IMG/VR virus record: IMGVR_UViG_3300027895_000003
Strand: one strand, 5' to 3'
DNA: 36,912 bases
Origin: a virus
Both the position numbers and the translations under genes were made by a program. Shown piece after piece: positions 1 through 36,912 of the stretch. Within the stretch, counting starts at the first letter, position 1; the number at the start of each line of letters is the position of its first letter. The notes below the pieces were generated by a model. It was not told the origin of the DNA, made no database searches, and saw only the letters and a program-made list of their open reading frames with translations.

Positions 1-127
1 ACGTACTGCCCCCAATCTCTGTCACTCGAGGGCCATGTGTAGATGGTGAGGGGTCCGGTCGCATCGGGCTCGAACTTGATGGCGCCGTTGTGGTCGTAGA
101 CGATGCCTCGTTGTCCGTTCTTGGGCT
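1..127. repeat. Terminal direct repeat, copy 1 (identical to 36786..36912); assembly overlap of a circular or circularly permuted genome
   Basis: Base-by-base comparison of the window start and end gives an exact 127-nt match. The terL reading frame is continuous across the junction. Confidence 0.95.
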
Positions 128-1022
128 CGTAGCACTCTCCTAGCTTGACCAGGGGGAAGACGTGGTGGCCGGTGGACAGAAACGCCTCTTCGGGGTTGAT
201 CGGGTACTCCTGGTGGAACTGGTTGATATCTCCCATGCACAGGTTGTCGATGGCGAAGCGCCGCCAGGCGAGCTGGGCCAAGGAGAGCCCGTGGACGGCC
301 ACGAGGTCGCGCTCTTCCTCCATGAGGTCCTGCTCGCGCAATGTGGTGTTCGGGATGGAGTATTCCTCCTGGTCGGTCCAGGGGAAGAAGAGCGGGACGA
401 AGTTGGACTCCTTGTGGACCGCCCTCTGCCACTCGTCGTGGAACCAGTTCCCGACCCCGTTCGCGGTGGATTCGAGCACCATGACCGTCCCGTGCTTGTA
501 GGGCACCGATTGGTTCAACCCCGTCATCAGTCGCTCAGGCTCCTCCCAGAAAGCGCACTCCGAGCAGTGCACGGCGTGGTAGGTGAAGCTGCGCCCTGAG
601 CCGGCGTTCTTGGCCGTGGCCACCGACATCGAAGAGCGGTTCTCCTGCCAGCCCAGCGTCTTCATCGAGTTGTGCTTCTCTGAGAATCCGGGCCGGAACG
701 GCCACTCCTCCCACATCAGCTTGGTCATGTCGAAGAGGTGCTGGCTGGCCTTGGTCTCGTGCGCAATCACCAGGGACCGGGTGCCTGGATGAAGGAAGCA
801 CCAGTTGAACAGCACCCCTTCCACGGCCGTGGACATGCCCATCTGGCGCGCCTTGAGCGTGATGATCCGAACCGGGAGCCCGAGGTTGTACTGGCGCTCG
901 ATCTCCTTGCACAGGGCCAAGGGCGCAGGCCAGGCGGGGTCAGAGAGGTTGATGGGCTCGACCGAGAGATCCTTCTTCTGGATCGTCAGCTGCTCCATGA
1001 AGGGCTTGAGGGACAGGGGCAT
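1..1022 (-). CDS. terL: Terminase large subunit, N-terminal (ATPase) part; continues across the circular junction into 36206..36785
   Basis: My own translation from ATG 1022 gives MPLSLKPF..ITLKARQMGMSTAVEGV (Walker-A-like KARQxGxST). It also gives ..TYHAVHCSECAFW (Walker-B-like) and ..EYPINPEEAFLSTG. The frame is open to the window edge and in frame with the 36206..36784 ORF. Combined length is 533 aa. This ORF is not in the ORF track because it runs off the edge. Confidence 0.9.
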   Translation of the reverse strand, partial: MPLSLKPFMEQLTIQKKDLSVEPINLSDPAWPAPLALCKEIERQYNLGLPVRIITLKARQMGMSTAVEGVLFNWCFLHPGTRSLVIAHETKASQHLFDMTKLMWEEWPFRPGFSEKHNSMKTLGWQENRSSMSVATAKNAGSGRSFTYHAVHCSECAFWEEPERLMTGLNQSVPYKHGTVMVLESTANGVGNWFHDEWQRAVHKESNFVPLFFPWTDQEEYSIPNTTLREQDLMEEERDLVAVHGLSLAQLAWRRFAIDNLCMGDINQFHQEYPINPEEAFLSTGHHVFPLVKLGECYEPKNGQRGIVYDHNGAIKFEPDATGPLTIYTWPSSDRDWGQY

Positions 1023-1056
1023 GTTCCACAGGGAACACTCAGGCTCTAGCTGAGGT

Positions 1057-1443
1057 TCACCCCTCCGACTCGTAGATGGCGGGCGAGAGGTCGGCCGTCA
1101 TGGCCTCGAGAGCTTCGCGCACCTTGGCGGACTGCTCGGGGCTGGACTTGCCGGCCAGGCCGATGGAGCGGGCCAGCACGAGCTGGATGAAGCGGGCCTT
1201 GTTCGCCGGCGTGCCGTGGTGGATCTGGTTGACCGCCTCCTCGTAGGCCTCCCACTGCAACCAGGCCATCGCCTCGTTGATCTCGTCGGTCCCGTAGCGC
1301 TCGGCGTGCATGAGGTCGAGAGCGCCTTTCACGTACTCCACGTCGAGCGAGAGGGCGTTCGCCACGGCGGTCGGTGGCACACCGACGCTCAAGAAGGCGT
1401 AGATCACCTCTGAGCGCTGTTCTTGGGTCAGGTCCAGGTTCAC
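1057..1443 (-). CDS. Putative small terminase subunit / HTH DNA-binding protein (128 aa)
   Basis: It lies immediately upstream of terL. The N-terminal segment is HTH-like (QRSEVIYAFLSVGVPPTAVANALSLDVEYV). Its GTG start overlaps the upstream stop (GTGA). The assignment rests on position and size only. Confidence 0.5.
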   Translation of the reverse strand: MNLDLTQEQRSEVIYAFLSVGVPPTAVANALSLDVEYVKGALDLMHAERYGTDEINEAMAWLQWEAYEEAVNQIHHGTPANKARFIQLVLARSIGLAGKSSPEQSAKVREALEAMTADLSPAIYESEG

Positions 1444-1726
1444 TTGATGCGGCCCCCCACGGCGCTCACAGAGGCCTCTAGGAGCAATCCAGAGGTGTGA
1501 CCGAGCCTGAGGACCTGTTCCTGGCTCTCGTAGGGCACGATCACCTTGAGCGTGACGGTGCCGTTGGGGTTGATGACGAGCTGGGGGGCCTCGAACTGGA
1601 ACTTGGTCCCGTCGAAGCTCGGTGCCTCGGACTTGCGTCTCGGACGGGTCTCGGGCTTGGGCTTGTCGCGGTGGATGCGGGTGGTGGTCTTGGGGTTGGC
1701 GAGGTAGCGGGCTACGCGGGCCCCGT
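1440..1726 (-). CDS. Start-less coding segment in the -1 frame relative to 1712..2104; probable frameshift extension (about 90 aa, ..ARYLANPKTTTRIH..GTVTLKVIVPYESQEQV..)
   Basis: GC3 is very high from about 1726 down to the stop at 1440. The only in-frame ATG/GTG/TTG upstream of the last 34 codons is ATG 2108, and the intervening ~125 codons of that frame have low GC3. A GGGG run (plus-strand CCCC, 1721..1724) sits two codons before the zero-frame stop. Confidence 0.55.
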
Positions 1727-2104
1727 CATCACCTGTCCCGGCACTATCTGGGGCACCATCGGGTTGGTCCTCGGGCTCTGGCCGCTCAGCGTCCCGTGGC
1801 TGTCCAGGAACTCGTTGTACTCCCTCATCAGATCCTCGTCGATGGGTAGCGTGCCGAACTCGGCTTCGGGCTCGTGCCAGGGTTCTGGCCTCAGCGGCTG
1901 CAACGTCGTCTCGGTCGGCGCTAGGGAGTCCGGCACGCCCAAGAGTGTCCTGGTCAACGAGGTGTAATCCCTCATTGTCTCCCGGCTCGTCTCTTGGCAG
2001 GCCGCCAACTGTGACCGCAAATCCCTCCTGATCCAGTTCATAGCCACTAGCAGCGAGATTATGACTGAGATCATCGGGATCGTAGTAAGGATCGTGCGTT
2101 TCAT
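1712..2104 (-). CDS. Membrane-anchored hypothetical protein (130 aa), zero frame of a recoding/dual-coding locus
   Basis: ATG at 2104. Third-codon-position GC is very high (about 85% by my count), whereas the overlapping 2108 frame is low. There is an N-terminal TM segment, ILTTIPMISVIISLLVAMNWI. Confidence 0.7.
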   Translation of the reverse strand: MKRTILTTIPMISVIISLLVAMNWIRRDLRSQLAACQETSRETMRDYTSLTRTLLGVPDSLAPTETTLQPLRPEPWHEPEAEFGTLPIDEDLMREYNEFLDSHGTLSGQSPRTNPMVPQIVPGQVMTGPA

Positions 2105-2140
2105 CCATGTGACCTGGACTTTCCTGGGGGGTTTCTACAA

Positions 2141-2179
2141 ATACTACCGCTCGATTTTCTCAATACAAGTGTACTTGTA
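2141..2179 (-). promoter_or_regulatory. Candidate promoter (-35 TTGTAT, 16-nt spacer, -10 TAGTAT) with overlapping palindromic operator TACAAGT-GT-ACTTGTA
   Basis: Read on the minus strand: -10 at 2141..2146, -35 at 2163..2168, inverted repeat at 2164..2179. It lies in the lowest-GC part of the 2109..2442 intergenic region, upstream of ATG 2104. Confidence 0.35.
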
Positions 2180-2442
2180 CCCGATCTGACACCCATTTTC
2201 AAAGGATGCCTCAGACCTACACGTGCGTGTCGAGCGTCCAAATGGGATCGAACGAGCCCACATGAACGAACCGTTGGCCGTGACGGATGGTCGATCAGCG
2301 CGCGCCCCGGCGCGGCCCATCCGGGGGAGTGGGGAGCGGAGCGGAGGGAGCGAGGCTCGCTCCGTTGTCCATGCGTTGCTTGATGGCGTGGCTGTCGTGG
2401 TGTCACGCTGTGGTCACACGAACGAACGATTGGAGCACAGTC

Positions 2443-2826
2443 ATGCCGATGTCAGTGAAGGCCTTTGGTGCAGCGAACGACATACTGGCTGGTCGTGGCA
2501 GCGTGACCGTGGACGTAGCGCTAGCTGCTGTAGCCGGATCAGCCGGCATCGTGGCACTCGCCAAGCGGATCAAGCTGTGGGACAAGCTCGACGCGGTGGA
2601 GCAGGCCGAAGCCGAGGCGCTCGACGCCGACGCACCGCGTGGTTGGTGGAGAGCGGTTCAGGACAGCCTCAGCTCGACGATGTTCCTCGGTCGCCATGTG
2701 TCGTGGCGGCACGGTCAGCGCGATCTGGCGCACGGCAGGAGCGGCTACAGCGCTGGTCTCAACGAGCAAGGTGAGCTGGTCGTCACCACGCCTGTTCTCG
2801 ACGAGGAGAGCGGAACGCTCGTCTAA
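2443..2826 (+). CDS. Hypothetical membrane protein (127 aa); the only convincing plus-strand protein gene
   Basis: ATG 2443 has GGAG 7 nt upstream. GC3 is moderately high. There is one TM-like segment (VDVALAAVAGSAGIVALA). Its TAA stop (2824..2826) overlaps the TAG stop (2823..2825) of the convergent minus-strand gene. Confidence 0.6.
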   Translation: MPMSVKAFGAANDILAGRGSVTVDVALAAVAGSAGIVALAKRIKLWDKLDAVEQAEAEALDADAPRGWWRAVQDSLSSTMFLGRHVSWRHGQRDLAHGRSGYSAGLNEQGELVVTTPVLDEESGTLV

Positions 2827-2969
2827 CGGCGCTTGTGCTTGCGTCCCGGTCGACGCCTGGCGTTGGACAACGCAGCAGCAACGGCTTGCTTCTGGGAATG
2901 GCCTGAGTCGACCATCTCGCGGATGTTGTTGCTCACCGTCTTGCGTGAGCTGCCCGGTGAGAGCGGCAT
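2823..2969 (-). CDS. Small basic protein (48 aa): MPLSPGSSRKTVSNNIREMVDSGHSQKQAVAAALSNARRRPGRKHKRR
   Basis: The ATG shares its A with the upstream TGA (TGATG). The ..KQAVAAALSNARR.. motif resembles a small basic protein family I recall (DUF6496-like), but this is unverified. The C-terminal tail is polybasic. Confidence 0.6.
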   Translation of the reverse strand: MPLSPGSSRKTVSNNIREMVDSGHSQKQAVAAALSNARRRPGRKHKRR

Positions 2970-3295
2970 CAGATCGGTCGCTCGGTGACTGGGAACGTCG
3001 TGGCGTTGACCACTTCGACCGCTCCGGTGCCCACCCATTCGACTGTCCACGTGCCCCACTTCGCCGTGGTGTCGAGCGTGACGCTGTAGAAGCCGGTCGA
3101 GATGCGACTGATCGAGCCTGAGACGCCGTATTGCCAGACCACCGGGGCCACGCCTGAGTTCAGCACCTCGTACTTGAAGAAGATCGTGGTCGGGTCGACG
3201 AGTGTCGACGTGCCCGGTGGGCTGTAGAACAGGCCGACGCAAGTGACCGCGGTGCCGTCGTAGGTGGGGCTCGGAAGCGAGTTGGTGATCGTCAT
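2969..3295 (-). CDS. Hypothetical beta-rich virion/fibre-associated protein (108 aa)
   Basis: High-GC3 ORF coupled to the upstream GH16-like gene by an ATGA overlap. Composition is typical of Ig-like/beta-sandwich phage proteins. Confidence 0.6.
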   Translation of the reverse strand: MTITNSLPSPTYDGTAVTCVGLFYSPPGTSTLVDPTTIFFKYEVLNSGVAPVVWQYGVSGSISRISTGFYSVTLDTTAKWGTWTVEWVGTGAVEVVNATTFPVTERPI

Positions 3296-8113: not shown

Positions 8114-8964
8114 GAGGCGAACGCTCGCATAACCGCTGGTCCGAGGGTTGAGGACGCGACACCGGTGGTCCCGGACGCGTTCAAGATCGCCGTTCCGCCC
8201 GTCGTGGCCCACGCCCAATCGACCTGATACGCGGTACCGGCGACGGTGTTCATGCGGATGTAGACGTGCGCCATCGGGCTTTCCGTGTCCGTGGTCGACG
8301 AATACGCGCTCGCGCTGTAGCCGACCTGGGTCGTCGTGCCGTGCGTGAAGAGCATCCAGATGATCTCGTTCTGCGCTCCGTTGCTGAAAAACCCCGTGTA
8401 GGCCTGGAGCTCGATCAGCGTCTTGGCCGAGATCGCCGTGAAGGGCAGCGTCAGGTGCGTGGTGTCGATGGCGGCCGGGGTCGACGAGCCGATGGAGTAC
8501 GACTGCTCGGGGGACGGCTCGTAGAACGTGGAGGCGAGCTGCTGGTTGAGGGCGGTGGCGCCGTCGGTGGTCGACTGCGGCACGACGTTGACGATCCGTT
8601 GCCCGGCCAGGTTCACCGGACCTGCTGGGTTCGCCATCTGGTCGAGCGTCTGCTCGCGGATCAGGTACTCCACGGCAACGGTGCCGTTGAGCGTCGAGGC
8701 GTTGGAACCCAAGGGGATCGAGACATCCCCGGTGACCGCTGAGCGTGAGATCGTGACCGTCGGGCCTGATCCACCGCTGATGGTGACCGTGCCGTCGCTG
8801 TTCTCGATCAGCGAGATCGAGCCACCGGGGTTGAATCCTTCGATGGCTTGGATCAGCGCCCAGAGCAGTTCACCTGGGCCGTTGGACTCAGGCCGCTCGC
8901 CCCCGAAGGCTTCGATCAGGCCGATCAGAAGCTCGGCTTCGCCGAAGCTGCGGATGATGCTCAT
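8110..8964 (-). CDS. Tail fibre protein (284 aa)
   Basis: The motif ..NLAGQRIVNVVPQSTTDGATALNQQ.. resembles the common fibre motif (L..nrItnla.P....DAvnk). It is rich in T/S/G. Confidence 0.55.
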   Translation of the reverse strand: MSIIRSFGEAELLIGLIEAFGGERPESNGPGELLWALIQAIEGFNPGGSISLIENSDGTVTISGGSGPTVTISRSAVTGDVSIPLGSNASTLNGTVAVEYLIREQTLDQMANPAGPVNLAGQRIVNVVPQSTTDGATALNQQLASTFYEPSPEQSYSIGSSTPAAIDTTHLTLPFTAISAKTLIELQAYTGFFSNGAQNEIIWMLFTHGTTTQVGYSASAYSSTTDTESPMAHVYIRMNTVAGTAYQVDWAWATTGGTAILNASGTTGVASSTLGPAVMRAFAS

Positions 8965-9968
8965 GTGACCGTGGCCAGGTAGTCGGCGTAGAGCGGTCCC
9001 ACCGCGTCCAGGCTGTACTTGGCCACCGCTTCTCGACGGAGCACCTGCGCGGGGTCGTGCGCGGGGCTGCCGATGGCCTTGACGTAGTCGTCCAGGCCGC
9101 GACAGCGCCAGCCCTCGTGGCCATTGCGCACGGTCTCGGGGAAGATGCCCCAGTCAGAGACGATGACCGGTGTGCCGCTGAGCAGGGATTCGATGTGGAC
9201 ACCGCAGAACGGCTCGATGTAGCGGCTCGGGCAGAAGGTGGCGATGGCATGGCCCAGGAGATCTTTTCGTCCCTTGGGGTCGAGTTCGCCCACGTACTCG
9301 ATCTCGCCGGTGAGATCCTTGACGTACTCGGCGTCCTCGAAGACGTGGCCGCCGATCTTGAGTGGCACGCCGGCCTTCTTGCAGGCGGCGATGGCGATGT
9401 CGATGCCCTTGCAGCCTGTGATCCGGCCGAGGAAGGCGAAGTAGTCGCGGCCCTTGGAGACCGCGAAGTCCTTGGGGTCGAAGTAGTTGGGGATCACCGC
9501 GTCGAACTCGGAGCCGTAGGCGCGGTCGATGCCGTAGACGTGGTTGGCCCAGATGTGGGACTCGAAGACGCGGTATTTGGCGAACGTGCCGGTATAGCCC
9601 ACCCCGAACTCGACCACGGGCCAGTGACCGAGAGCGTCCGCGATGGGCTTCTGGGCTGTGCCACCGATCAGGCAGATGATGTCGCCGGATTCGAGATGCT
9701 GAACCAATGCGGCGATGGCCTTGGCGTTGAAGTTCTTGAACAGGAACTCCTCTGGCGTGAAGTCGGGGACGAAGAAGGGGGCGAACTGCATGTCGGTGAC
9801 CTTGACGTACTTGCCCGCCAGCTCCGCCTCGCCGTTGCCGTAGGTAACGACCTCACAACCCTGGTCCGTCATCATCTTGGCGAACTTGGCCACCTTGGCG
9901 GTGTAGGCACACCAGGAGAACTGCGCGGTGAGGTTGGTATGCGGCAGGCCGACGACGTGGAGACGCAT
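8961..9968 (-). CDS. Glycosyltransferase, GT-B fold, GT4-like (335 aa)
   Basis: ATG 9968 ([11 protein letters not shown]..) shares its A with the upstream TGA. The C-terminal motif EPFCGVHIESLLSGTPVIVSDWGIFPETVRNGHEGW matches the GT4 E-x7-E region pattern from recall. Confidence 0.65.
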   Translation of the reverse strand: MRLHVVGLPHTNLTAQFSWCAYTAKVAKFAKMMTDQGCEVVTYGNGEAELAGKYVKVTDMQFAPFFVPDFTPEEFLFKNFNAKAIAALVQHLESGDIICLIGGTAQKPIADALGHWPVVEFGVGYTGTFAKYRVFESHIWANHVYGIDRAYGSEFDAVIPNYFDPKDFAVSKGRDYFAFLGRITGCKGIDIAIAACKKAGVPLKIGGHVFEDAEYVKDLTGEIEYVGELDPKGRKDLLGHAIATFCPSRYIEPFCGVHIESLLSGTPVIVSDWGIFPETVRNGHEGWRCRGLDDYVKAIGSPAHDPAQVLRREAVAKYSLDAVGPLYADYLATVT

Positions 9969-11080
9969 CAGGCCATCTGGTAGATGATGACGTAGCCACT
10001 CCCGCCGGTGCCGCCCGCACCTGCGGAGGTCCCGGCCCCCCCACCTCCACCGCCTCCACCGGTATTGGCCGACGCAGTGCCTCCTGGTCCACCCACACCC
10101 GACGAACCGTTCGTGCCGTTGCCGCCTCCACCGGCGCCACCACCTCCACCACCGAGCGCTGCCCCGGTGCCACCGGTGCCGCCGGCCTGGCCACCGCCGG
10201 CACCGCCGGCAGCCGAGGTCGGGCCACCACCACCGCCTCCGCCCGAGCCATATCGCATCTGGCCGGGACCACCACGGGCGCCTGCTCCTGACGTGGTGGC
10301 ACCCCATCCACCAGCGGTGCCTGAGCCAGCGCCGGTGCTGCCGGCTGGCTGTTGACCGTCACCTCCAGTACCGCCAACACCCGCCGAACTCCCTCCTAAT
10401 CCTAGAATGCCACCCTTGGCTGTGACCAGAGACCCGATGGAAGTGTTGTTGCCAGTAGACCCCGCCGTGCCACCAGTGCCGATGGTCACCGTCTGGTTAC
10501 CGGTCACATTGCCCAGGTAGAAGAGCGGCAGGACCTCGCCTCCGCCTCCGCCTCCTCCACCGGTTGAGGTCGACGCGGCACCTCCACCACCACCTCCTGC
10601 AACAACGAGGGCGGCGAAGATGGCGCTGCCGGTGGTCGACGGGGTCCAGGTCGGCGTGCCGCTGGTGAAGGTGGCCGGGGCGGCGAGAACCGTGCCCGAG
10701 GCTCCTGTGGCACCGGTGACCCCCGTAGGCCCTGTGGGTCCGGTTGCGCCAGCGACCCCGGTAGCCCCTGTCACACCGACAACGCCGGTCGGACCGGTCG
10801 GGCCGGCTGAACCGGTCGCCCCGGTTGCCCCTGTGGGGCCTCCAGCGGGTCCTGTAGCCCCGGTGACCCCTGCTGCGCCCGAGGAGCCTGTAGCCCCGGT
10901 TACGCCCGCTCCGGTGGCTCCTGAGACCCCTGTAGGACCCGTCGGGCCGGCTGAACCGGTCGCACCTGTGGCGCCAGTCGGTCCACCCGAGGCTCCGGTC
11001 GCGCCTGTCGGACCGGTGGGTCCTGCAGCTCCCCCTCCGCCTCCACCCCCGGCGAACTCACCCCCGGTGCCGATGGGCAT
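9968..11080 (-). CDS. Collagen-like (G-X-Y) plus glycine-rich-domain fibre protein (370 aa)
   Basis: There are about 37 uninterrupted Gly-X-Y triplets ([13 protein letters not shown]..). Poly-Gly tracts follow, and the protein ends ..[12 protein letters not shown], typical of glycine-rich minor tail proteins. Confidence 0.75.
10690..11020 (-). repeat. Collagen-triplet coding repeat with an internal imperfect 144-nt (48-aa) duplication
   Basis: [21 protein letters not shown] occurs at residues 32 and 80. The underlying DNA is similar but not identical. Confidence 0.8.
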
Positions 11081-15750: not shown

Positions 15751-16397
15751 CACTTGAGCAGGTCTATCGCTGCGCCGGCCTGGGACTTCGACAGCTTGTG
15801 GATCGAGCCGGGCCACGGGCCGACGTTCTGCTCCATCCACTGTTGGCCCGCGGCTCCGTCCCCTATCCCGTTGTCGTCGAGCAGCTTCTTGAGGTAGCCG
15901 ATCTGCTTGGCGCTCGCCAGGTTGGGGTCCGCGGGCACTTCGTCGGGGACGAGTTTGGGCTCCTTGACCTCGCCGGCCACGAACGGGCGCTGTGGGGGTC
16001 GGATCGCCTTCTCGGCGTCGTCGTCCTTGTCGGCGTTGATGCGCAAGATGGCGCACGTCGCGTAGCGGCGCAGATACGTGATTCCCGAGCCTTGTCCCTG
16101 TGGGTCGTTCTTCGCCATGACCAGGGGGGTATCTGACTCCATCCACTCGCCAGACACGTGCCCGAGCAACGAGGCGAGGCCCGGCTGGCCGTCCTCCATG
16201 ACGCAGGGGAACTGGGTGAGCACCAGGCCCACGTTGTGCAGGTACGGGTTGATGGCCTTGTCGATGGCCCCTTGGCTGGCGAACTCGTTGCCGAAGTGGG
16301 GGTTGACCGAGTCCTTGACCACGCTCATCCCTTCGGAGGCGTGGAGGCTGTCGAGCGCCGCGAGCAGGAACTTTATGGACTCAGACTTGCGGATCAT
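15750..16397 (-). CDS. ERF-family single-strand annealing protein (215 aa)
   Basis: ATG 16397 has GGAGG 8 nt upstream. The pattern ..LLGHVSGEWMES......PQGQGSGITYLRRYATCAILRINADKDDD.. matches the ERF core from recall. Confidence 0.6.
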   Translation of the reverse strand: MIRKSESIKFLLAALDSLHASEGMSVVKDSVNPHFGNEFASQGAIDKAINPYLHNVGLVLTQFPCVMEDGQPGLASLLGHVSGEWMESDTPLVMAKNDPQGQGSGITYLRRYATCAILRINADKDDDAEKAIRPPQRPFVAGEVKEPKLVPDEVPADPNLASAKQIGYLKKLLDDNGIGDGAAGQQWMEQNVGPWPGSIHKLSKSQAGAAIDLLK

Positions 16398-16617
16398 CGG
16401 TCGCCTCCAACACAAAGGTAGACGTGCCCAGGATCTCGGTCTGGGGGCACTTGAAGTAACGCGCCAGGGCGCGGAGGTGCTTGGGACGGATCGGCTCGTA
16501 GCCGAGCGCGTAGCGCGTCAGCTGGCTCGGGTGGATGCCGATCTTGGCTGCGATCTTGTAGGCGGCCACGTCGGCCTCGAGGAGCTTCACCTTGAGGTTG
16601 GTGATCGTGCGCTCCAC
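16381..16617 (-). CDS. XRE/Cro-CI-type HTH regulator (78 aa), apparently leaderless
   Basis: The HTH segment is VAAYKIAAKIGIHPSQLTRYALGYEP. The GTG start lies 6 nt after a near-consensus -10 element. Confidence 0.65.
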   Translation of the reverse strand: MERTITNLKVKLLEADVAAYKIAAKIGIHPSQLTRYALGYEPIRPKHLRALARYFKCPQTEILGTSTFVLEATDDPQV

Positions 16618-16652: not shown

Positions 16653-19600
16653 GATGTTCGTCGGCGCTGCGATCTCAGGCACGGTCTCCGACGGCGGCAG
16701 GCCGGTCTGCTTGAGCGCCTGGTTGTAGACCGCTTCGAGGTTGGCCGGGCTGATGTTGTAATCGGTCTGTAACGGGTTCGGAACAGAAGCGACATTGCCG
16801 AGTGCGCCGAAGTTGCCGGTCTCGAACGCCTGCTGCGCCGCGGCTGAAGCCGTCGAGTACCGGTCGAGTTCCTGTTGGGCCGCGATCTGCTTGAGGTTGA
16901 TGTGCTGCACCTGGGCGAAGGGGATGTTCAGCGACTCGAAGATGAGCTTGGTGAACGCTGCGGGGTTGGATCGTTGCAGGTCGCGGTACTGCGCGCTGAG
17001 CCCGAACGCGGCGTCCACCGTCGTCAGCTCGGGGACGAACTGCTCCGCTGCGGTCAAGATGTTGCCGCCCGCCGAGGCCTCCTTGGTCCCGTAGAGCTGG
17101 CTGTAGCTGACCGTCGGGTACAGCGTGTTGGAGCCGAAGACGATCTGGGGGTCGACCGCGGCGAAGGGGGCCGAGATCACCGGGTTGAGGGCGGAGATGA
17201 AACCGCCCAGCGTGGCGTAGTTGGCCACGTCACGCAGCGGGTTGAGGGCGCGCACGTCGACGGCACTGACGTTGCCGTTCTGGTCCGGGGTCCCCAAGAA
17301 GAAGAGGTTTTGGATGCGCGTGTAGTAGCCCAGCGCCACGTTGTCGGAGTTCTGGTTGGCCAGGTTCGCCAGGAACATGGCGCGGTAGGGGTGGTCAACC
17401 GGGTACTCGGCCACGTAGGTGAGCACGTGCTTGGTCCACCCGTAGAACGGCATGATCGTCGTCAGCGTGTTGCGCTCGAAGGGCGACATGGCGGACAGGT
17501 TGCCCATCGTCCGGTTGGCGGCGCGCATCCCTTCCTCCTGCGCTCGTGCGTCGGTCATCTCCAAGCGTTCGCCCGTCTCGGGGTCGACGTAGAAGCCGCG
17601 CCCCTCCGCTTTCGCCGCGCCGTCGAGGTAGACGAGAGTGCGCTGCATGTCGGTCATCAGGTTGGTCAATTTGAAGACCATTTGGGGGATGACCTGGAGG
17701 TAGCTGGTCATCTTGGAAGGGTCCAAGCCCAGCTCTTCGATCTTCTGCTGCATCCAGTGGTACGCCATCGTCTTGCCGGCGGCGTCGTGGAAGGCGATGG
17801 CGCCCATCGACTCGGGCTTGTCGAAGCCGATCTGCGTCGACGTGGTGTGGATCGACGCCCGGAAGTCGGGGTCGCGCATCATCCGGATGGCGTCGGGGAT
17901 GAAGCGGAAGCTGGTCGGGTGGCGCAGCGCCAAGAGGAACGTGCCACCGAAGCCGATGTGGGCGATGAAGCGCGGCGAGTAGCCCAGCACCGCGGTGCGG
18001 AACACCTGGGTCGCCTTGGACAGGCCGCCGCTCGGGTCCATCTGGTTGCGGTCCACGATCTGCTGGAGCCCGTCGACCATTTCCTTAGGCATCCACAGCG
18101 TCTCACCGCCTTTGATGTGCTTGGACGAGATCCCGAAGCGCGCGTCGGGGTCGAACTTGACCAGTCCCCATTCCGATTCGAGGACGCGGGCGAGCGATGC
18201 CTCGTCGCTGGCCAGCGCGCGCATGTCGGGGTGCATCTTGGCGAGGATGGCTTCGAGGTCGGCCTGCTTGTAGGCGTGGCCGGGGATCACGATGTCGTCG
18301 ATGAACTCCGCGTTGGCGTCTCGGCTGACCTGTTGCCACATGGCCTTGGAGAAGCCGGCGTGGATGTCGTAGACGGTGTTGCGCATGTCGAGCATCCGAC
18401 TGGTGGCCGAGTCGACGCTCTGGTGGGTCAGCGGTTGGATGCGGATGTGGTACTCGCCGTAGCCGCCCTCGGCCTCCTTGGAGGTGACGTTGGGGACCCA
18501 GTGCGGCACGAAGCCCTGGGCGCGCAGCGACTCGATCTCGCTCTTGGCGTCCTCCATCGCCCGGTTGATCTCACCGGGGCTGAGCATCCCGGCGAAGACG
18601 CTCGTCGCGCTGGCCTTGGTGTGCGCCATGATGATCCCGATCATCCGCGTCGGGTCCTCTCGGAACTCCTTCTCGGCCTCTGCGGTTATGGCGCCGTCGT
18701 TCTTCATCTGCGCCACCGCCTTGGCGACCGCGACCTTGCCCTCTTCTGACTTGGCGAGGTTCTGCACCTGGAGGCGGATGGCGAGCGGCTGCCAGTTGGC
18801 GGCTGGGTTGTCGCGGAAGTCCTTGTCGAACTGCTTGGTCGCCTTGGCGTAGGCGTCGATCTTCTTGTGCAGGCCTCCCTTGGTGATCGCCTTGCTCAAC
18901 GCGTCCTCGTCGCGCTTGCGGCTCCTGGCGTACTTGTAGAGGTTGTCGGCCAGGTCGCGCGAGGTGGCGAAGAGAGGACTGACGCGGACCGGGGCCTGGA
19001 GACCGGTGTTCAGCGGATCAGGCGCGAGCAGGTCGCCCGAGATCGACTTGTTCTTGAACTTCTTGGACAGCTTGAGGGTCAGCGTTCGCATGGCGTCGAA
19101 GTCCTTGGACTCATACGACGCCATGACCTGGTCGATCAACCCACCTTCACCGTAGATCTCGTTGACCAGCCGGAGCTGCGTGGCGTTGGGTACAGGGCGG
19201 CCGATGAGCTGGGCGATTTGCGCGGGGTCGTCGGTCGCCCCGCGGACCTGTTGGTTGAACTGGCTGAGCTTGTCGAAGGCCGGTTGGGCGACGGTGTCGT
19301 TGGCTTCGATGTTGTCGGCCAGGCGGTCCGAGACCTTGGACGCCTTGTCCACCGCGTCGATGCTCGCAGCCAGGCGGTCCTTGGACCGGACTACCTTGTC
19401 GTCGACGCCTTGGGCCACGCGGAACTCGGTCGTGCCGTCGGGCATCTCGACCATCGCTCCTTCACCAGACGCCAGCATCTTCTCCTGCACGAAGTCCATG
19501 ACCTTGAACGTCTGCTTGAAGAACTGCTTCATCTCGGGAGCCAACGCGTCGTTGTTGATGAGCGTCTGGCGGTCGTTGCCTCCGAGCGCCTTGTCCAGCC

Positions 19601-20522
19601 CGGTCCAGATGTCGTAGGCCTGGCGCGCCTGGTCGGGACTGAGCTTGGCGTAGGCCTCGTCCCAGGCCTGTGACATCGACGCGAGGTCGTGGCTGGCGGC
19701 TGAGGTGATCTTGACCATCGACCCGGCCAGATGCGCCTGGTCGCTCCCGGCCATGTGCGTGTTGGCGTAGTGCTTGAGGCGCGTCGAGACCGTGAGGTTG
19801 CCGTACTCGGGTAGGCCGTCGGCGTTTCGGAACAGGCCCTTGGTGCGCGTCGGAAGATTGCCGACTACCTTGCGGGCCAGCGTCAGCGCCCCCACGCCGT
19901 TCTGCGCGTCTTGTCCCAACAGCCGAGAACGGCCCAAGAGGGCTTCGGGGATGCCAGCTCGTTCCGCTATCCCGGCTCCGAGACCGGCCTTGGCCAACAA
20001 GCCGACTCCGGTGTCGGCAAGAGGAAGAACGTCGAGGAAACTGATGAGGGGATGACTGGCGACATTGGACCAGCCGCCTTGCATGTACTCGCCGATAGCA
20101 GCGACTCCGGGTATCCACTGGGCCAATGTGTTCTTCTCGGGGTTCAAGATCCAGTTCGGGTGCTCGACCGTGTTCACCACGCCGTCGACGATGGAGGGGA
20201 TCAGCTTGGTCGGCTGCAGGCCCGTGAAGATGTTCGCCGCGTCATGCTCCACGTTGGAGAAGAAGTGCCCGACCGCGCTGAGCCCTGAACCAGTCGACGG
20301 CGTGTCGGTCGGCAGCGGCGTGACGTTGTTCGGGTTGTCCGCGGCCAAAATGGCGCGCGTGCGCTCGGCCTCTGACATCGGGTAGGTGCCCGAGAGAAGC
20401 CGCTTGGAGTCGAGCTGATAGACGGGATAGATGGCGGACTGCGGGATGCCCTGGGACTTGGCCCAGTTGACCGTCTTATTCCAGGAGGTCTGGAACTCTT
20501 GAACGTTCGACTTGTAGGCCAC
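16650..20522 (-). CDS. Giant virion protein (1290 aa); candidate internal/ejection protein (alternative: atypical tape measure)
   Basis: Single uninterrupted high-GC3 ORF. It is the last gene of the late operon, after three low-complexity proteins. I recognised no enzymatic motif. Confidence 0.5.
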   Translation of the reverse strand: MAYKSNVQEFQTSWNKTVNWAKSQGIPQSAIYPVYQLDSKRLLSGTYPMSEAERTRAILAADNPNNVTPLPTDTPSTGSGLSAVGHFFSNVEHDAANIFTGLQPTKLIPSIVDGVVNTVEHPNWILNPEKNTLAQWIPGVAAIGEYMQGGWSNVASHPLISFLDVLPLADTGVGLLAKAGLGAGIAERAGIPEALLGRSRLLGQDAQNGVGALTLARKVVGNLPTRTKGLFRNADGLPEYGNLTVSTRLKHYANTHMAGSDQAHLAGSMVKITSAASHDLASMSQAWDEAYAKLSPDQARQAYDIWTGLDKALGGNDRQTLINNDALAPEMKQFFKQTFKVMDFVQEKMLASGEGAMVEMPDGTTEFRVAQGVDDKVVRSKDRLAASIDAVDKASKVSDRLADNIEANDTVAQPAFDKLSQFNQQVRGATDDPAQIAQLIGRPVPNATQLRLVNEIYGEGGLIDQVMASYESKDFDAMRTLTLKLSKKFKNKSISGDLLAPDPLNTGLQAPVRVSPLFATSRDLADNLYKYARSRKRDEDALSKAITKGGLHKKIDAYAKATKQFDKDFRDNPAANWQPLAIRLQVQNLAKSEEGKVAVAKAVAQMKNDGAITAEAEKEFREDPTRMIGIIMAHTKASATSVFAGMLSPGEINRAMEDAKSEIESLRAQGFVPHWVPNVTSKEAEGGYGEYHIRIQPLTHQSVDSATSRMLDMRNTVYDIHAGFSKAMWQQVSRDANAEFIDDIVIPGHAYKQADLEAILAKMHPDMRALASDEASLARVLESEWGLVKFDPDARFGISSKHIKGGETLWMPKEMVDGLQQIVDRNQMDPSGGLSKATQVFRTAVLGYSPRFIAHIGFGGTFLLALRHPTSFRFIPDAIRMMRDPDFRASIHTTSTQIGFDKPESMGAIAFHDAAGKTMAYHWMQQKIEELGLDPSKMTSYLQVIPQMVFKLTNLMTDMQRTLVYLDGAAKAEGRGFYVDPETGERLEMTDARAQEEGMRAANRTMGNLSAMSPFERNTLTTIMPFYGWTKHVLTYVAEYPVDHPYRAMFLANLANQNSDNVALGYYTRIQNLFFLGTPDQNGNVSAVDVRALNPLRDVANYATLGGFISALNPVISAPFAAVDPQIVFGSNTLYPTVSYSQLYGTKEASAGGNILTAAEQFVPELTTVDAAFGLSAQYRDLQRSNPAAFTKLIFESLNIPFAQVQHINLKQIAAQQELDRYSTASAAAQQAFETGNFGALGNVASVPNPLQTDYNISPANLEAVYNQALKQTGLPPSETVPEIAAPTNI

Positions 20523-35941: not shown

Positions 35942-36246
35942 CCCAGCTCGTCCTCTTCTTCATCGAAGACCTCAATCGGGTCCATGTACTTCCACCACCG
36001 TAGGCCACAATCAGGACACCGGGTATCCCAACTCCTGAACTCTTTGCGTGTTGGCCGTCGTTCGGAGTGCCACGGAATCACGTCATAAAACTCCTCGTCA
36101 GTGCCATCACTCTTCTTGACCTGATGGTGTTTTCGATTCCTCAAAGGCGCGTGAGTTGGCTGGTTACCAGGGCAATACACCAAGACTTGCCATCCGCGAT
36201 TGTCGTCAGCCGAAGGCTTCCCAAGGTGGCTTATCGAAGAGGTCAT
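35938..36246 (-). CDS. Hypothetical protein (102 aa), low GC3, with a CPDC motif
   Basis: It overlaps the terL 3' end by 41 nt. Codon usage is atypical, with many T-ending codons. The start is uncertain. Confidence 0.4.
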   Translation of the reverse strand: MTSSISHLGKPSADDNRGWQVLVYCPGNQPTHAPLRNRKHHQVKKSDGTDEEFYDVIPWHSERRPTRKEFRSWDTRCPDCGLRWWKYMDPIEVFDEEEDELG

Positions 36247-36912
36247 TCGTTGTCACCTCACTTGGACCGTAAGGCAGGGCGGGCTCGGTCATCGTACTCC
36301 CAATCGCAATCATGAGGGCGGTCACCGAATCGTCGTTGCCCTTGGGGCTCGACGGTCCCATGTCGTAGGGGCCGAGGTGTACGAAGTTGCACATCTCGTG
36401 GTAGGTCATCTCGTCGTGGATCTTGATGGCCTTCTGGGCCAAGAGGTCGATCACGCACCCCCGGGCCCAGTGCTTGCGCTGCGAGGACATCTGCCAGCCC
36501 CAGGTGATAGCCAACTTGCCGGGCGACTTGTCCGCCCAGCGGTGGCGCCAGATGTTGGGGTAGTCGAGTTGCAACAGGGCACCGATGGTGGCGTAGCCGG
36601 GACCGTTGATCTCTACGTTGAGGAGCGCCTGGTTGTAGTAGTAGGCGAGTCGGATCAGTTCATGGGCGAAGGCAACAGGGTCCATATGCCCATGCCAAAC
36701 GGCAACCTGCTCGAAGGTTCTTCGGTTAAAAACCTGGATGCAAGCTCCGTCGCCATACGTGGTCCGAGAAGGATCTCCGGCCACGACGTACTGCCCCCAA
36801 TCTCTGTCACTCGAGGGCCATGTGTAGATGGTGAGGGGTCCGGTCGCATCGGGCTCGAACTTGATGGCGCCGTTGTGGTCGTAGACGATGCCTCGTTGTC
36901 CGTTCTTGGGCT
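36206..36912 (-). CDS. terL: Terminase large subunit, C-terminal (nuclease) part; 36786..36912 duplicates 1..127
   Basis: The track ORF 36206..36784 starts at an internal GTG. Upstream codons stay open (..KFEPDATGPLTIYTWPSSDRDWGQYVVAGDPSRT..), which is the classic terminase hinge/nuclease-entry pattern. The stop is at 36206. Confidence 0.9.
   Translation of the reverse strand, partial: PKNGQRGIVYDHNGAIKFEPDATGPLTIYTWPSSDRDWGQYVVAGDPSRTTYGDGACIQVFNRRTFEQVAVWHGHMDPVAFAHELIRLAYYYNQALLNVEINGPGYATIGALLQLDYPNIWRHRWADKSPGKLAITWGWQMSSQRKHWARGCVIDLLAQKAIKIHDEMTYHEMCNFVHLGPYDMGPSSPKGNDDSVTALMIAIGSTMTEPALPYGPSEVTTNDLFDKPPWEAFG
36786..36912. repeat. Terminal direct repeat, copy 2 (identical to 1..127)
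   Basis: Same as copy 1. The unique genome length is 36,785 bp. Confidence 0.95.

Follow-up and report, generated by a model that had tools for sequence, protein, structure and literature searches.

The stretch of DNA analysed here, called the window, is the whole 36,912-nucleotide (nt) IMG/VR virus record IMGVR_UViG_3300027895_000003, and its minus strand raises the question of how the last ~90 codons of a reading frame that ends at a small-terminase-like gene come to be translated. A preliminary description of the locus had pointed out two ATG codons (2108 and 2104) lying 4 nt apart and opening two frames, and had proposed that ribosomes reach the C-terminal segment by programmed -1 slippage on a run of four G; a complete overprinted gene pair and a one-base homopolymer error were named as alternatives. 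Our comparison of the locus with its relatives indicates that it is very probably a same-strand overprinted gene pair, here designated L and N, in which N lies in the +1 frame of L and both products are made without recoding. The features of the locus are the following.

1440..2108, minus strand: gene L, an open reading frame (ORF) for 222 amino acids (aa), from ATG 2108 to TGA 1442..1440.
1712..2104, minus strand: gene N, an ORF for 130 aa in the +1 frame of L and embedded in L, with its stop TAG at 1714..1712.
2102..2108, minus strand: twin starts ATGgATG, L starting from 2108 and N from 2104.
2112..2125, minus strand: purine-rich, Shine-Dalgarno-like stretch AGGAAAGTCCAGGT upstream of both starts, its function suggested by sequence.
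2027..2092, minus strand: predicted transmembrane helix of N, residues 5-26, ILTTIPMISVIISLLVAMNWIR, encoded over the conserved DPYYDPDDLSHNL motif of L.
1721..1724, minus strand: GGGG run, read as Thr-Gly (ACG GGG) in N and as Asp-Gly-Ala (GAC GGG GCC) in L.
1712..1715, minus strand: GTAG, in which the GTA codon of L Val132 overlaps the N stop TAG.
1440..1443, minus strand: GTGA, in which the L stop TGA overlaps the GTG start of the 128-aa small-terminase-like gene.

The layout that had been described was recovered in full. The two ATGs open two different minus-strand frames, of 222 and 130 codons, and L and N share an overlap of 393 nt. The GC content at third codon positions (GC3), taken in 90-nt windows, was 0.70-0.97 for the 2104 frame between 2110 and ~1780 and 0.77-0.97 for the 2108 frame between ~1750 and 1510, with the reported change of frame near 1750-1720. 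After its first ATG the 2108 frame contains no ATG, GTG or TTG until a GTG 34 codons short of its stop, as had been stated, and the 2104 frame encodes the 130-aa transmembrane protein ending at the TAG at 1712, for which the ORF, the helix and homologues of the same length were all found. The minus strand at the end of N reads ACG GGG CCC GCG TAG, with the Gs at 1724..1721. A scan of 1000..3000 for consensus promoters and terminators found nothing.

A protein search with an artificial fusion of N and the C-terminal segment as query returned 15 proteins, all N homologues of ~130 aa that covered the N part only. The comparison set consisted of 14 sequences, namely the window and 13 diverged relatives, which are independent assemblies from different samples and pipelines; tests of starts and selection used the window and 12 relatives, as the contig of the remaining one (L019) begins inside the locus, before the start codons. 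Pairwise nucleotide identity among the window and these 12 relatives was 0.53-0.85 (median 0.67). One further metagenome locus, L006 (Ga0182031_1468088), was left out of all analyses because of several frameshifts inside N; in this contig the frameshifts are spread within the N/L region, the conserved motifs hop between frames, and the assembly is probably of low quality.

The two-frame layout was present again in all 13 relatives, and the 2108 frame was open over the entire N gene in 14 of 14 sequences. Wherever the 5′ end was on the contig, the 2108 frame started with ATG or GTG (13/13, window included), and an AGGAG-type Shine-Dalgarno sequence stood 5-9 nt before the L start in 12 of 12 relatives. 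In these relatives the N start lies at most 7 nt from the L start, in the other frame, with a single Shine-Dalgarno sequence upstream. The form of the twin starts varied among the 13 sequences: ATGgATG in the window, ATGnnnnATG in seven, ATGTG in three, ATGccATG in one and ATGTGGTG in one; in the three ATGTG lineages, ATG serves N and GTG serves L. A conserved motif, CCCAGGTCAGGAG, was also seen before the L/N start in most lineages, and appears as CCAGGTCAC at 2109-2117 in the window.

In the relatives, gene calls usually consist of N followed by a shortened ORF of 36-99 aa for the C-terminal segment, so that a "missing start" is what this family normally shows and not a fault of the window contig. 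Full-length L is called in five database proteins of 220-222 aa, found by a search with the full-length alignment. The 36-99-aa calls start at an internal GTG or ATG of L (3396-3674 in L001, 2381-2668 in L015 and 520-819 in L017; in the window, the GTG at ~1544) and are most likely annotation artefacts of callers that disallow long overlaps. Additional scans of IMG/VR contigs and of GTDB species representatives gave no further L/N loci, and blastn and tblastn against isolated phages detected no relative of the locus, the only hits being remote portal matches of 22-23% identity. Scans of N, the C-terminal segment, L and the distant L homologues against Pfam and PHROGs produced no matches.

Selection in the overlap was examined with a four-class substitution test (OLGenie-like, in our own implementation; intervals in brackets). 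Over the whole overlap, the ratios were 0.51 [0.39-0.66] for L (dNN/dSN) and 0.70 [0.56-0.86] for N (dNN/dNS), indicating purifying selection in both frames. In L codons 1-45, L gave 0.17 [0.09-0.28] and N 0.82; in L codons 81-125, N gave 0.42 [0.26-0.60] and L 1.09. By codon phase, the third position of L varied most in L codons 1-45, 66-80 and beyond 126, and in codons 46-65 and 81-125 the third position of N was the most variable and its second position the least. Codon identity at conserved residues was 0.61-0.64 for L in codons 1-45 and in the non-overlapping C-terminal part, which is the single-coding baseline, and 0.69, near that baseline, for N in codons 81-125; for the frame not under selection in a given segment it was 0.83-0.86, similar to the third-frame control. 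The ordered or conserved parts of each protein overlie variable parts of the other. By these measures constraint is divided between the two genes: L is conserved where N needs only hydrophobicity or varies, and N is conserved over the disordered, low-complexity linker of L.

N consists of an N-terminal transmembrane helix, a juxtamembrane helix with an invariant LTRTLLGV, and conserved LPIDEDLMREY and QIVPGQ motifs. Its AlphaFold model (mean predicted local distance difference test score, pLDDT, 72.9) has helices at 2-55, which include the transmembrane and juxtamembrane parts with LTRTLLGV, and at 90-103. LTRTLLGV stays invariant while the L residues encoded there change. In the window, the N helix reaches a Kyte-Doolittle score of 2.41 in its best 18-aa segment; when L was resampled synonymously 1000 times, the mean was -0.73 and the highest value 0.68. 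Across lineages the scores were 1.7-2.5 (resamplings: mean ~-0.5, maximum ~1.0), and in every one of 13 lineages N was more hydrophobic than all 1000 resamplings. At L codons 2-28, T occupies 37-52% of third positions per lineage in these 13 lineages (52% in the window), compared with 5.7% genome-wide. These T-ending codons are accounted for by dual coding, as they provide the middle T of hydrophobic N codons. The preliminary description had taken GC3 together with GAT/GAC usage to mean that the 2104 frame alone is coding above 1726; this was mistaken. The resamplings indicate that the hydrophobic character of the N helix is selected even where amino-acid constraint on N is small (codons 1-45).

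The end of N leaves a comparable mark on L. Among the 14 sequences, the L codon overlapping the N stop is GTA in ten (the window and nine relatives), CTA in one and part of GTGA in one; in the other two the N stop lies four codons further along (CTGA, ATAG). GTA makes up only 2.8% of Val codons in the window genome, and its recurrence has a binomial P of ~8e-14. The rare GTA is kept in L because it ends N (TAG or TAA).

L is laid out as an acidic conserved N-terminal region (approximately residues 1-60), a helix at 66-84, a low-complexity linker, a basic stretch and a small beta-rich C-terminal domain (residues 132-222). Its N-terminal peptide is strongly conserved (DPFYDPDDLSHNLF...), with the consensus DP[FY][FY]DPDDLSHNLFA.GYELDQEGLA.TVGGL.RDEPGD..G..LVDQD[TS]LGR right after the start, and the peptide DPYYDPDDLSHNLAASGYELDQEGF also falls within residues 1-130; the full-length alignment has a mean column identity of 65%. 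An exhaustive profile search found distant L homologues that are single proteins of 209-265 aa and keep the acidic N-terminus, the long low-complexity linker and the small C-terminal beta domain; one of them, P0059, carries the motif DDPNFDPDDF. The predicted model of the window protein is mostly disordered or of low confidence, with helices at 66-84 and 127-137 and a hairpin-plus-helix unit at 173-204. As the 2108 frame is open, has its own start and has a conserved N-terminus in the relatives, the "C-terminal ~90 codons" are most likely simply the 3′ end of the 222-aa gene L.

A more distant case has the same architecture. The IMG/VR locus L020, of 54% GC, carries a 267-aa L homologue at 1603..2406, with an embedded +1 ORF of 160 aa at 1634..2116 that opens with a transmembrane helix and has an LDGLP...LQREY motif; terS-like and then terL-like genes follow the L homologue. 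The probability that the +1 frame would be open for at least 160 codons is 0.008 here, and the transmembrane score exceeds those of all 5000 resamplings. Taken together, both ORFs are intact and their starts and stops conserved in the 13 relatives and L020 (the start of L019 being off its contig), and both frames are under purifying selection. It is the complete overprinted pair, which the preliminary description had offered as an alternative, that these starts, this conservation and this two-frame selection support.

Several points weigh against a dual-coding interpretation. Amino-acid constraint on the L frame is missing from L codons 81-125 (1.09), where only openness and conserved flanks speak for L. 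Openness by itself is only moderately improbable per lineage, 0.18-0.30 for the L frame and 0.2-0.7 for the N frame given the other protein, and the lineages share ancestry, so that per-lineage statistics are not fully independent. The L model has a pLDDT of only 51.8, the Shine-Dalgarno sequence before the twin ATGs of the window is weaker than the AGGAG of the relatives, and window N and the embedded ORF of L020 are not significantly similar by BLASTP (E = 0.58), their homology resting on architecture. Another possibility is that only L is real, the 130-aa +1 ORF being an untranslated by-product of an L protein rich in Asp, Glu, Gly and Ala in a high-GC genome: given the L protein, a +1 frame open by chance has a probability of 0.2-0.7 per lineage, and the N frame is little constrained in L codons 1-45 (0.82). 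Such a by-product would not, however, be under purifying selection in codons 81-125, where L is unconstrained, nor hold LTRTLLGV invariant while L changes. It would likewise not account for the excess of T-ending codons or for a helix more hydrophobic than every resampling in each of 13 lineages and in L020, for an N start codon and stop position that are conserved, the stop through a rare codon, or for the low probability of an open frame in L020. We therefore regard an unexpressed N as improbable. An assembly or sequencing error, in which a homopolymer is short of one G and the true gene runs in one frame as one ORF, draws on the fact that homopolymer indels are common and that the contig of L006 is riddled with frameshifts; it is refuted by a layout with the N stop at the same L codon in 13 independent assemblies that share no homopolymer, and its probability is close to nil.

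The programmed -1 frameshift that headed the preliminary description would have N-translating ribosomes slip back one base on GGGG, or close to it, before TAG 1714..1712 and make a ~221-aa fusion of N with the C-terminal segment. In its favour, the window offers a re-pairable Gly codon two codons ahead of the stop, the -1 frame has no internal start, and both the -1 relation of the frames and the position of the N stop are conserved. When homologous loci were compared, as had been suggested, the two-frame architecture proved to be conserved but the slip site did not: the run at 1721..1724 is present by the frame switch, yet only the window has GGGG at a distance of two codons from the stop, and the last codons of the relatives are GAG, GGG, GCG, CTG or GAC, none of them slippery. 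No X XXY YYZ heptamer occurs in any of the 14 sequences, the window permitting only single-tRNA re-pairing; the 89 nt downstream, in a C/A-rich region, have a minimum free energy of -10.9 kcal/mol, no better than the -10.6 averaged over shuffles (z = -0.13); and no conserved Shine-Dalgarno sequence lies upstream of the slip position. A fusion also leaves unexplained why the -1 frame has a conserved start of its own and a strongly selected N-terminal domain (dNN/dSN 0.17), and the distant homologues are single ORFs. Frameshifting as the means of expressing the C-terminal segment is accordingly very unlikely. Two other slip sites, the conserved CCG GGN encoding Pro-Gly of QIVPGQ and the last sense codon before the stop, gave no consistent re-pairing, and the motif in the N protein explains the conservation of the sequence. 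Alternatively, N could be followed by a separate gene, with a ~91-aa C-terminal protein starting at the GTA of GTAG by termination-reinitiation and the upstream 2108 frame untranslated. L001 has GTGA at exactly this point, with a 92-aa gene called, two relatives have an in-frame GTG six codons upstream, with called genes of 95 and 99 aa, and the overlap of the N stop with a GTA codon is conserved. GTA, however, differs from AUG at two positions and is expected to be a very poor initiator; selected initiation should favour GTGA or ATGA, but GTGA occurs in only one of the 14 sequences, and of four lineages able to use GTG-A without an amino-acid change, three have GTA-A. The Arg codon before Val (CGN) and the acidic motif upstream of it are conserved in the L frame, and the free third base of the Arg codon is a mark of L-frame coding, whereas the last residue of N at that place can be A, E, G, L or D; lineages with called upstream starts include this motif, A-E-x-[DE]-R, in the protein ahead of Val; and the L frame has a start of its own and is under purifying selection over the 130 codons upstream. 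Two consecutive genes are thus extremely unlikely. A non-canonical start or reinitiation at GTA, suggested by the GTGA of L001, was rejected in view of the single GTGA among 14 sequences, the L-frame conservation upstream of that codon and the frame that is open and selected for 130 codons before it.

The overprinted pair could be expressed as follows. A single mRNA region would have one ribosome-binding region followed by two start codons at a spacing of 4 nt; initiation at ATG 2108 would produce L, a 222-aa soluble protein, and initiation at ATG 2104 would produce N, a 130-aa single-pass membrane protein ending at TAG 1714..1712. Both starts are presumably used, in some ratio. The L stop overlaps the GTG of the small-terminase-like gene (GTGA), an arrangement that fits translation of the L frame as far as this overlap and probably means that L is coupled translationally to the packaging genes; the same 4-nt overlap between the L-frame stop and the start of the next gene is seen in the called genes of the relatives. 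A minor N-C fusion may arise through occasional -1 slippage on top of dual coding, though nothing calls for it. More speculatively, and with considerable doubt, L/N could be a long-standing, conserved part of the packaging module in a large group of uncultured phages, a membrane protein having come to be written over the disordered N-terminal half of a protein encoded next to the terminase; mutually exclusive initiation (ATGgATG, ATGTG) would set the L:N ratio, and N would be a lysis or membrane-anchoring factor locked to late-gene translation.

Recognition of the pair corrects the annotation of a group of ~36-kb uncultured phages, in almost every relative of which gene callers split the locus wrongly. 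Its constraint is cleanly split, the transmembrane helix being written over an acidic motif and the disordered linker being overlain by a conserved domain, and its twin starts allow genetic separation: T2103C would kill the N start (ATG to ACG) and be silent in L (GAT to GAC), and mutation of ATG 2108 would kill L and spare N. It also carries a lesson of method, in that GC3 or codon-preference frame plots may suggest a frameshift where dual coding is the cause.

Two neighbouring features on the packaging side are listed below.

1057..1443, minus strand: the 128-aa gene, which adjoins the large terminase gene upstream and is small-terminase-like by position only.
1..1022, minus strand: 5′ part of the large terminase gene (phrog_2, E = 3e-16).

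The 128-aa gene had no significant family matches and is conserved beside terL in the relatives. Bases 1-127 of the window are repeated exactly at 36786-36912; the assembly is therefore circular, with a genome of ~36,785 bp, and the large terminase gene, cut at the start of the window, resumes at the high end, where a weak Terminase_6C match was found at 36209-36784. The phage of the window has a P22-like portal. In many relatives of 33-37 kb (L002, L003, L004, L008, L010, L011, L017 and L019), L/N lies ~50-600 nt from a contig end, an indication that the physical ends of the genome (cos, pac or direct terminal repeat) are just upstream of L/N. In one lineage a 300-aa C5 DNA methylase gene (PF00145) separates the small-terminase-like gene from the large terminase gene (1528-2430 in L003, 1441-2343 in L004); neither the window nor any other relative has it. 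In the window, 2223-2826 on the plus strand holds two ORFs of 183 and 179 aa that overlap each other and are the only sizeable plus-strand ORFs nearby; the tail-fibre-like genes lie to one side of them and the L/N promoter region to the other; one frame has a hydrophobic stretch, VTVDVALAAVAGSAGIVALA, and neither ORF had family matches. Elsewhere on the minus strand of the window are an ERF-family recombinase gene at 15753-16415 (E = 1.5e-16), a group-1 glycosyltransferase gene at 8964-10307 (E = 1.7e-14) and a 1290-aa ORF at 16653-20522 with no Pfam match.

L/N is a well-supported case of a known kind of arrangement, the embedded gene pair, and this pair of protein families is not known to have an earlier description. 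Tailed phages have, to our knowledge, few long genes that are embedded in another on the same strand and show clear selection in both frames, Rz/Rz1 being the usual example. The L/N pair lies just upstream of terminase genes, which is also where the lysis genes of lambda- and P22-like phages are located. Embedded +1-frame gene pairs of tailed phages have their archetype in the Rz/Rz1 spanins of lambda (PMC6139136, PMC5295617). As in that pair, the inner gene of L/N shares the strand of the outer one, lies wholly within it and is read in its +1 frame, and one partner has an N-terminal transmembrane helix. The roles are, however, arranged differently, as in L/N the membrane protein is the embedded shorter gene, starting 4 nt after the outer gene: the i-spanin is the longer outer gene, whereas N, whose transmembrane helix continues to residue 55 and is followed by a helix at 90-103, is the shorter embedded one. 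N has a transmembrane helix but no lipobox, and window L, which begins MDETHDPYYDPDDL, has no signal peptide, lipobox, hydrophobic segment or Cys, so that no equivalent of the o-spanin exists; neither protein shows sequence similarity to spanins. Judged by these features, L/N is not a spanin pair. No lysis-protein domains (endolysin, holin) were found in the window ORFs scanned. In the relative L007, a gene for an NlpC/P60 peptidase, likely an endolysin, lies at 707-1390, ~1.1 kb upstream of L/N.

Programmed -1 frameshifting is known in the tail assembly chaperones gpG/gpGT and in dnaX. The locus resembles these in that a short ORF ends, the -1 frame continues without a nearby start, and a base run lies near the stop; it differs in having no conserved slippery heptamer or stimulatory structure, and in that the -1 frame starts 130 codons upstream and is selected along that stretch. 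In the dual-start holin of lambda, S105/S107, two starts in the same frame give near-identical proteins. L/N also has two starts a few nt apart, one ribosome-binding site and two products, but its starts are in different frames and the proteins are unrelated.

Gene E of phiX174, inside gene D, and the lysis gene of MS2 encode short transmembrane proteins in the +1 frame over a pre-existing gene. Those phages have genomes of 4-6 kb under strong size pressure, whereas the phage of the window is a double-stranded DNA phage of ~36.8 kb, and N has ~100 residues of conserved extramembrane sequence, a lysis role for it being only a candidate one. Overprinted membrane proteins of small phages, such as E in D, have been reviewed (PMC8227390). 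L/N is like E/D and the MS2 gene in the way the overlap is accommodated: the hydrophobic residues of the embedded protein come from T at the third codon position of the host frame, and constraint is split into complementary segments.

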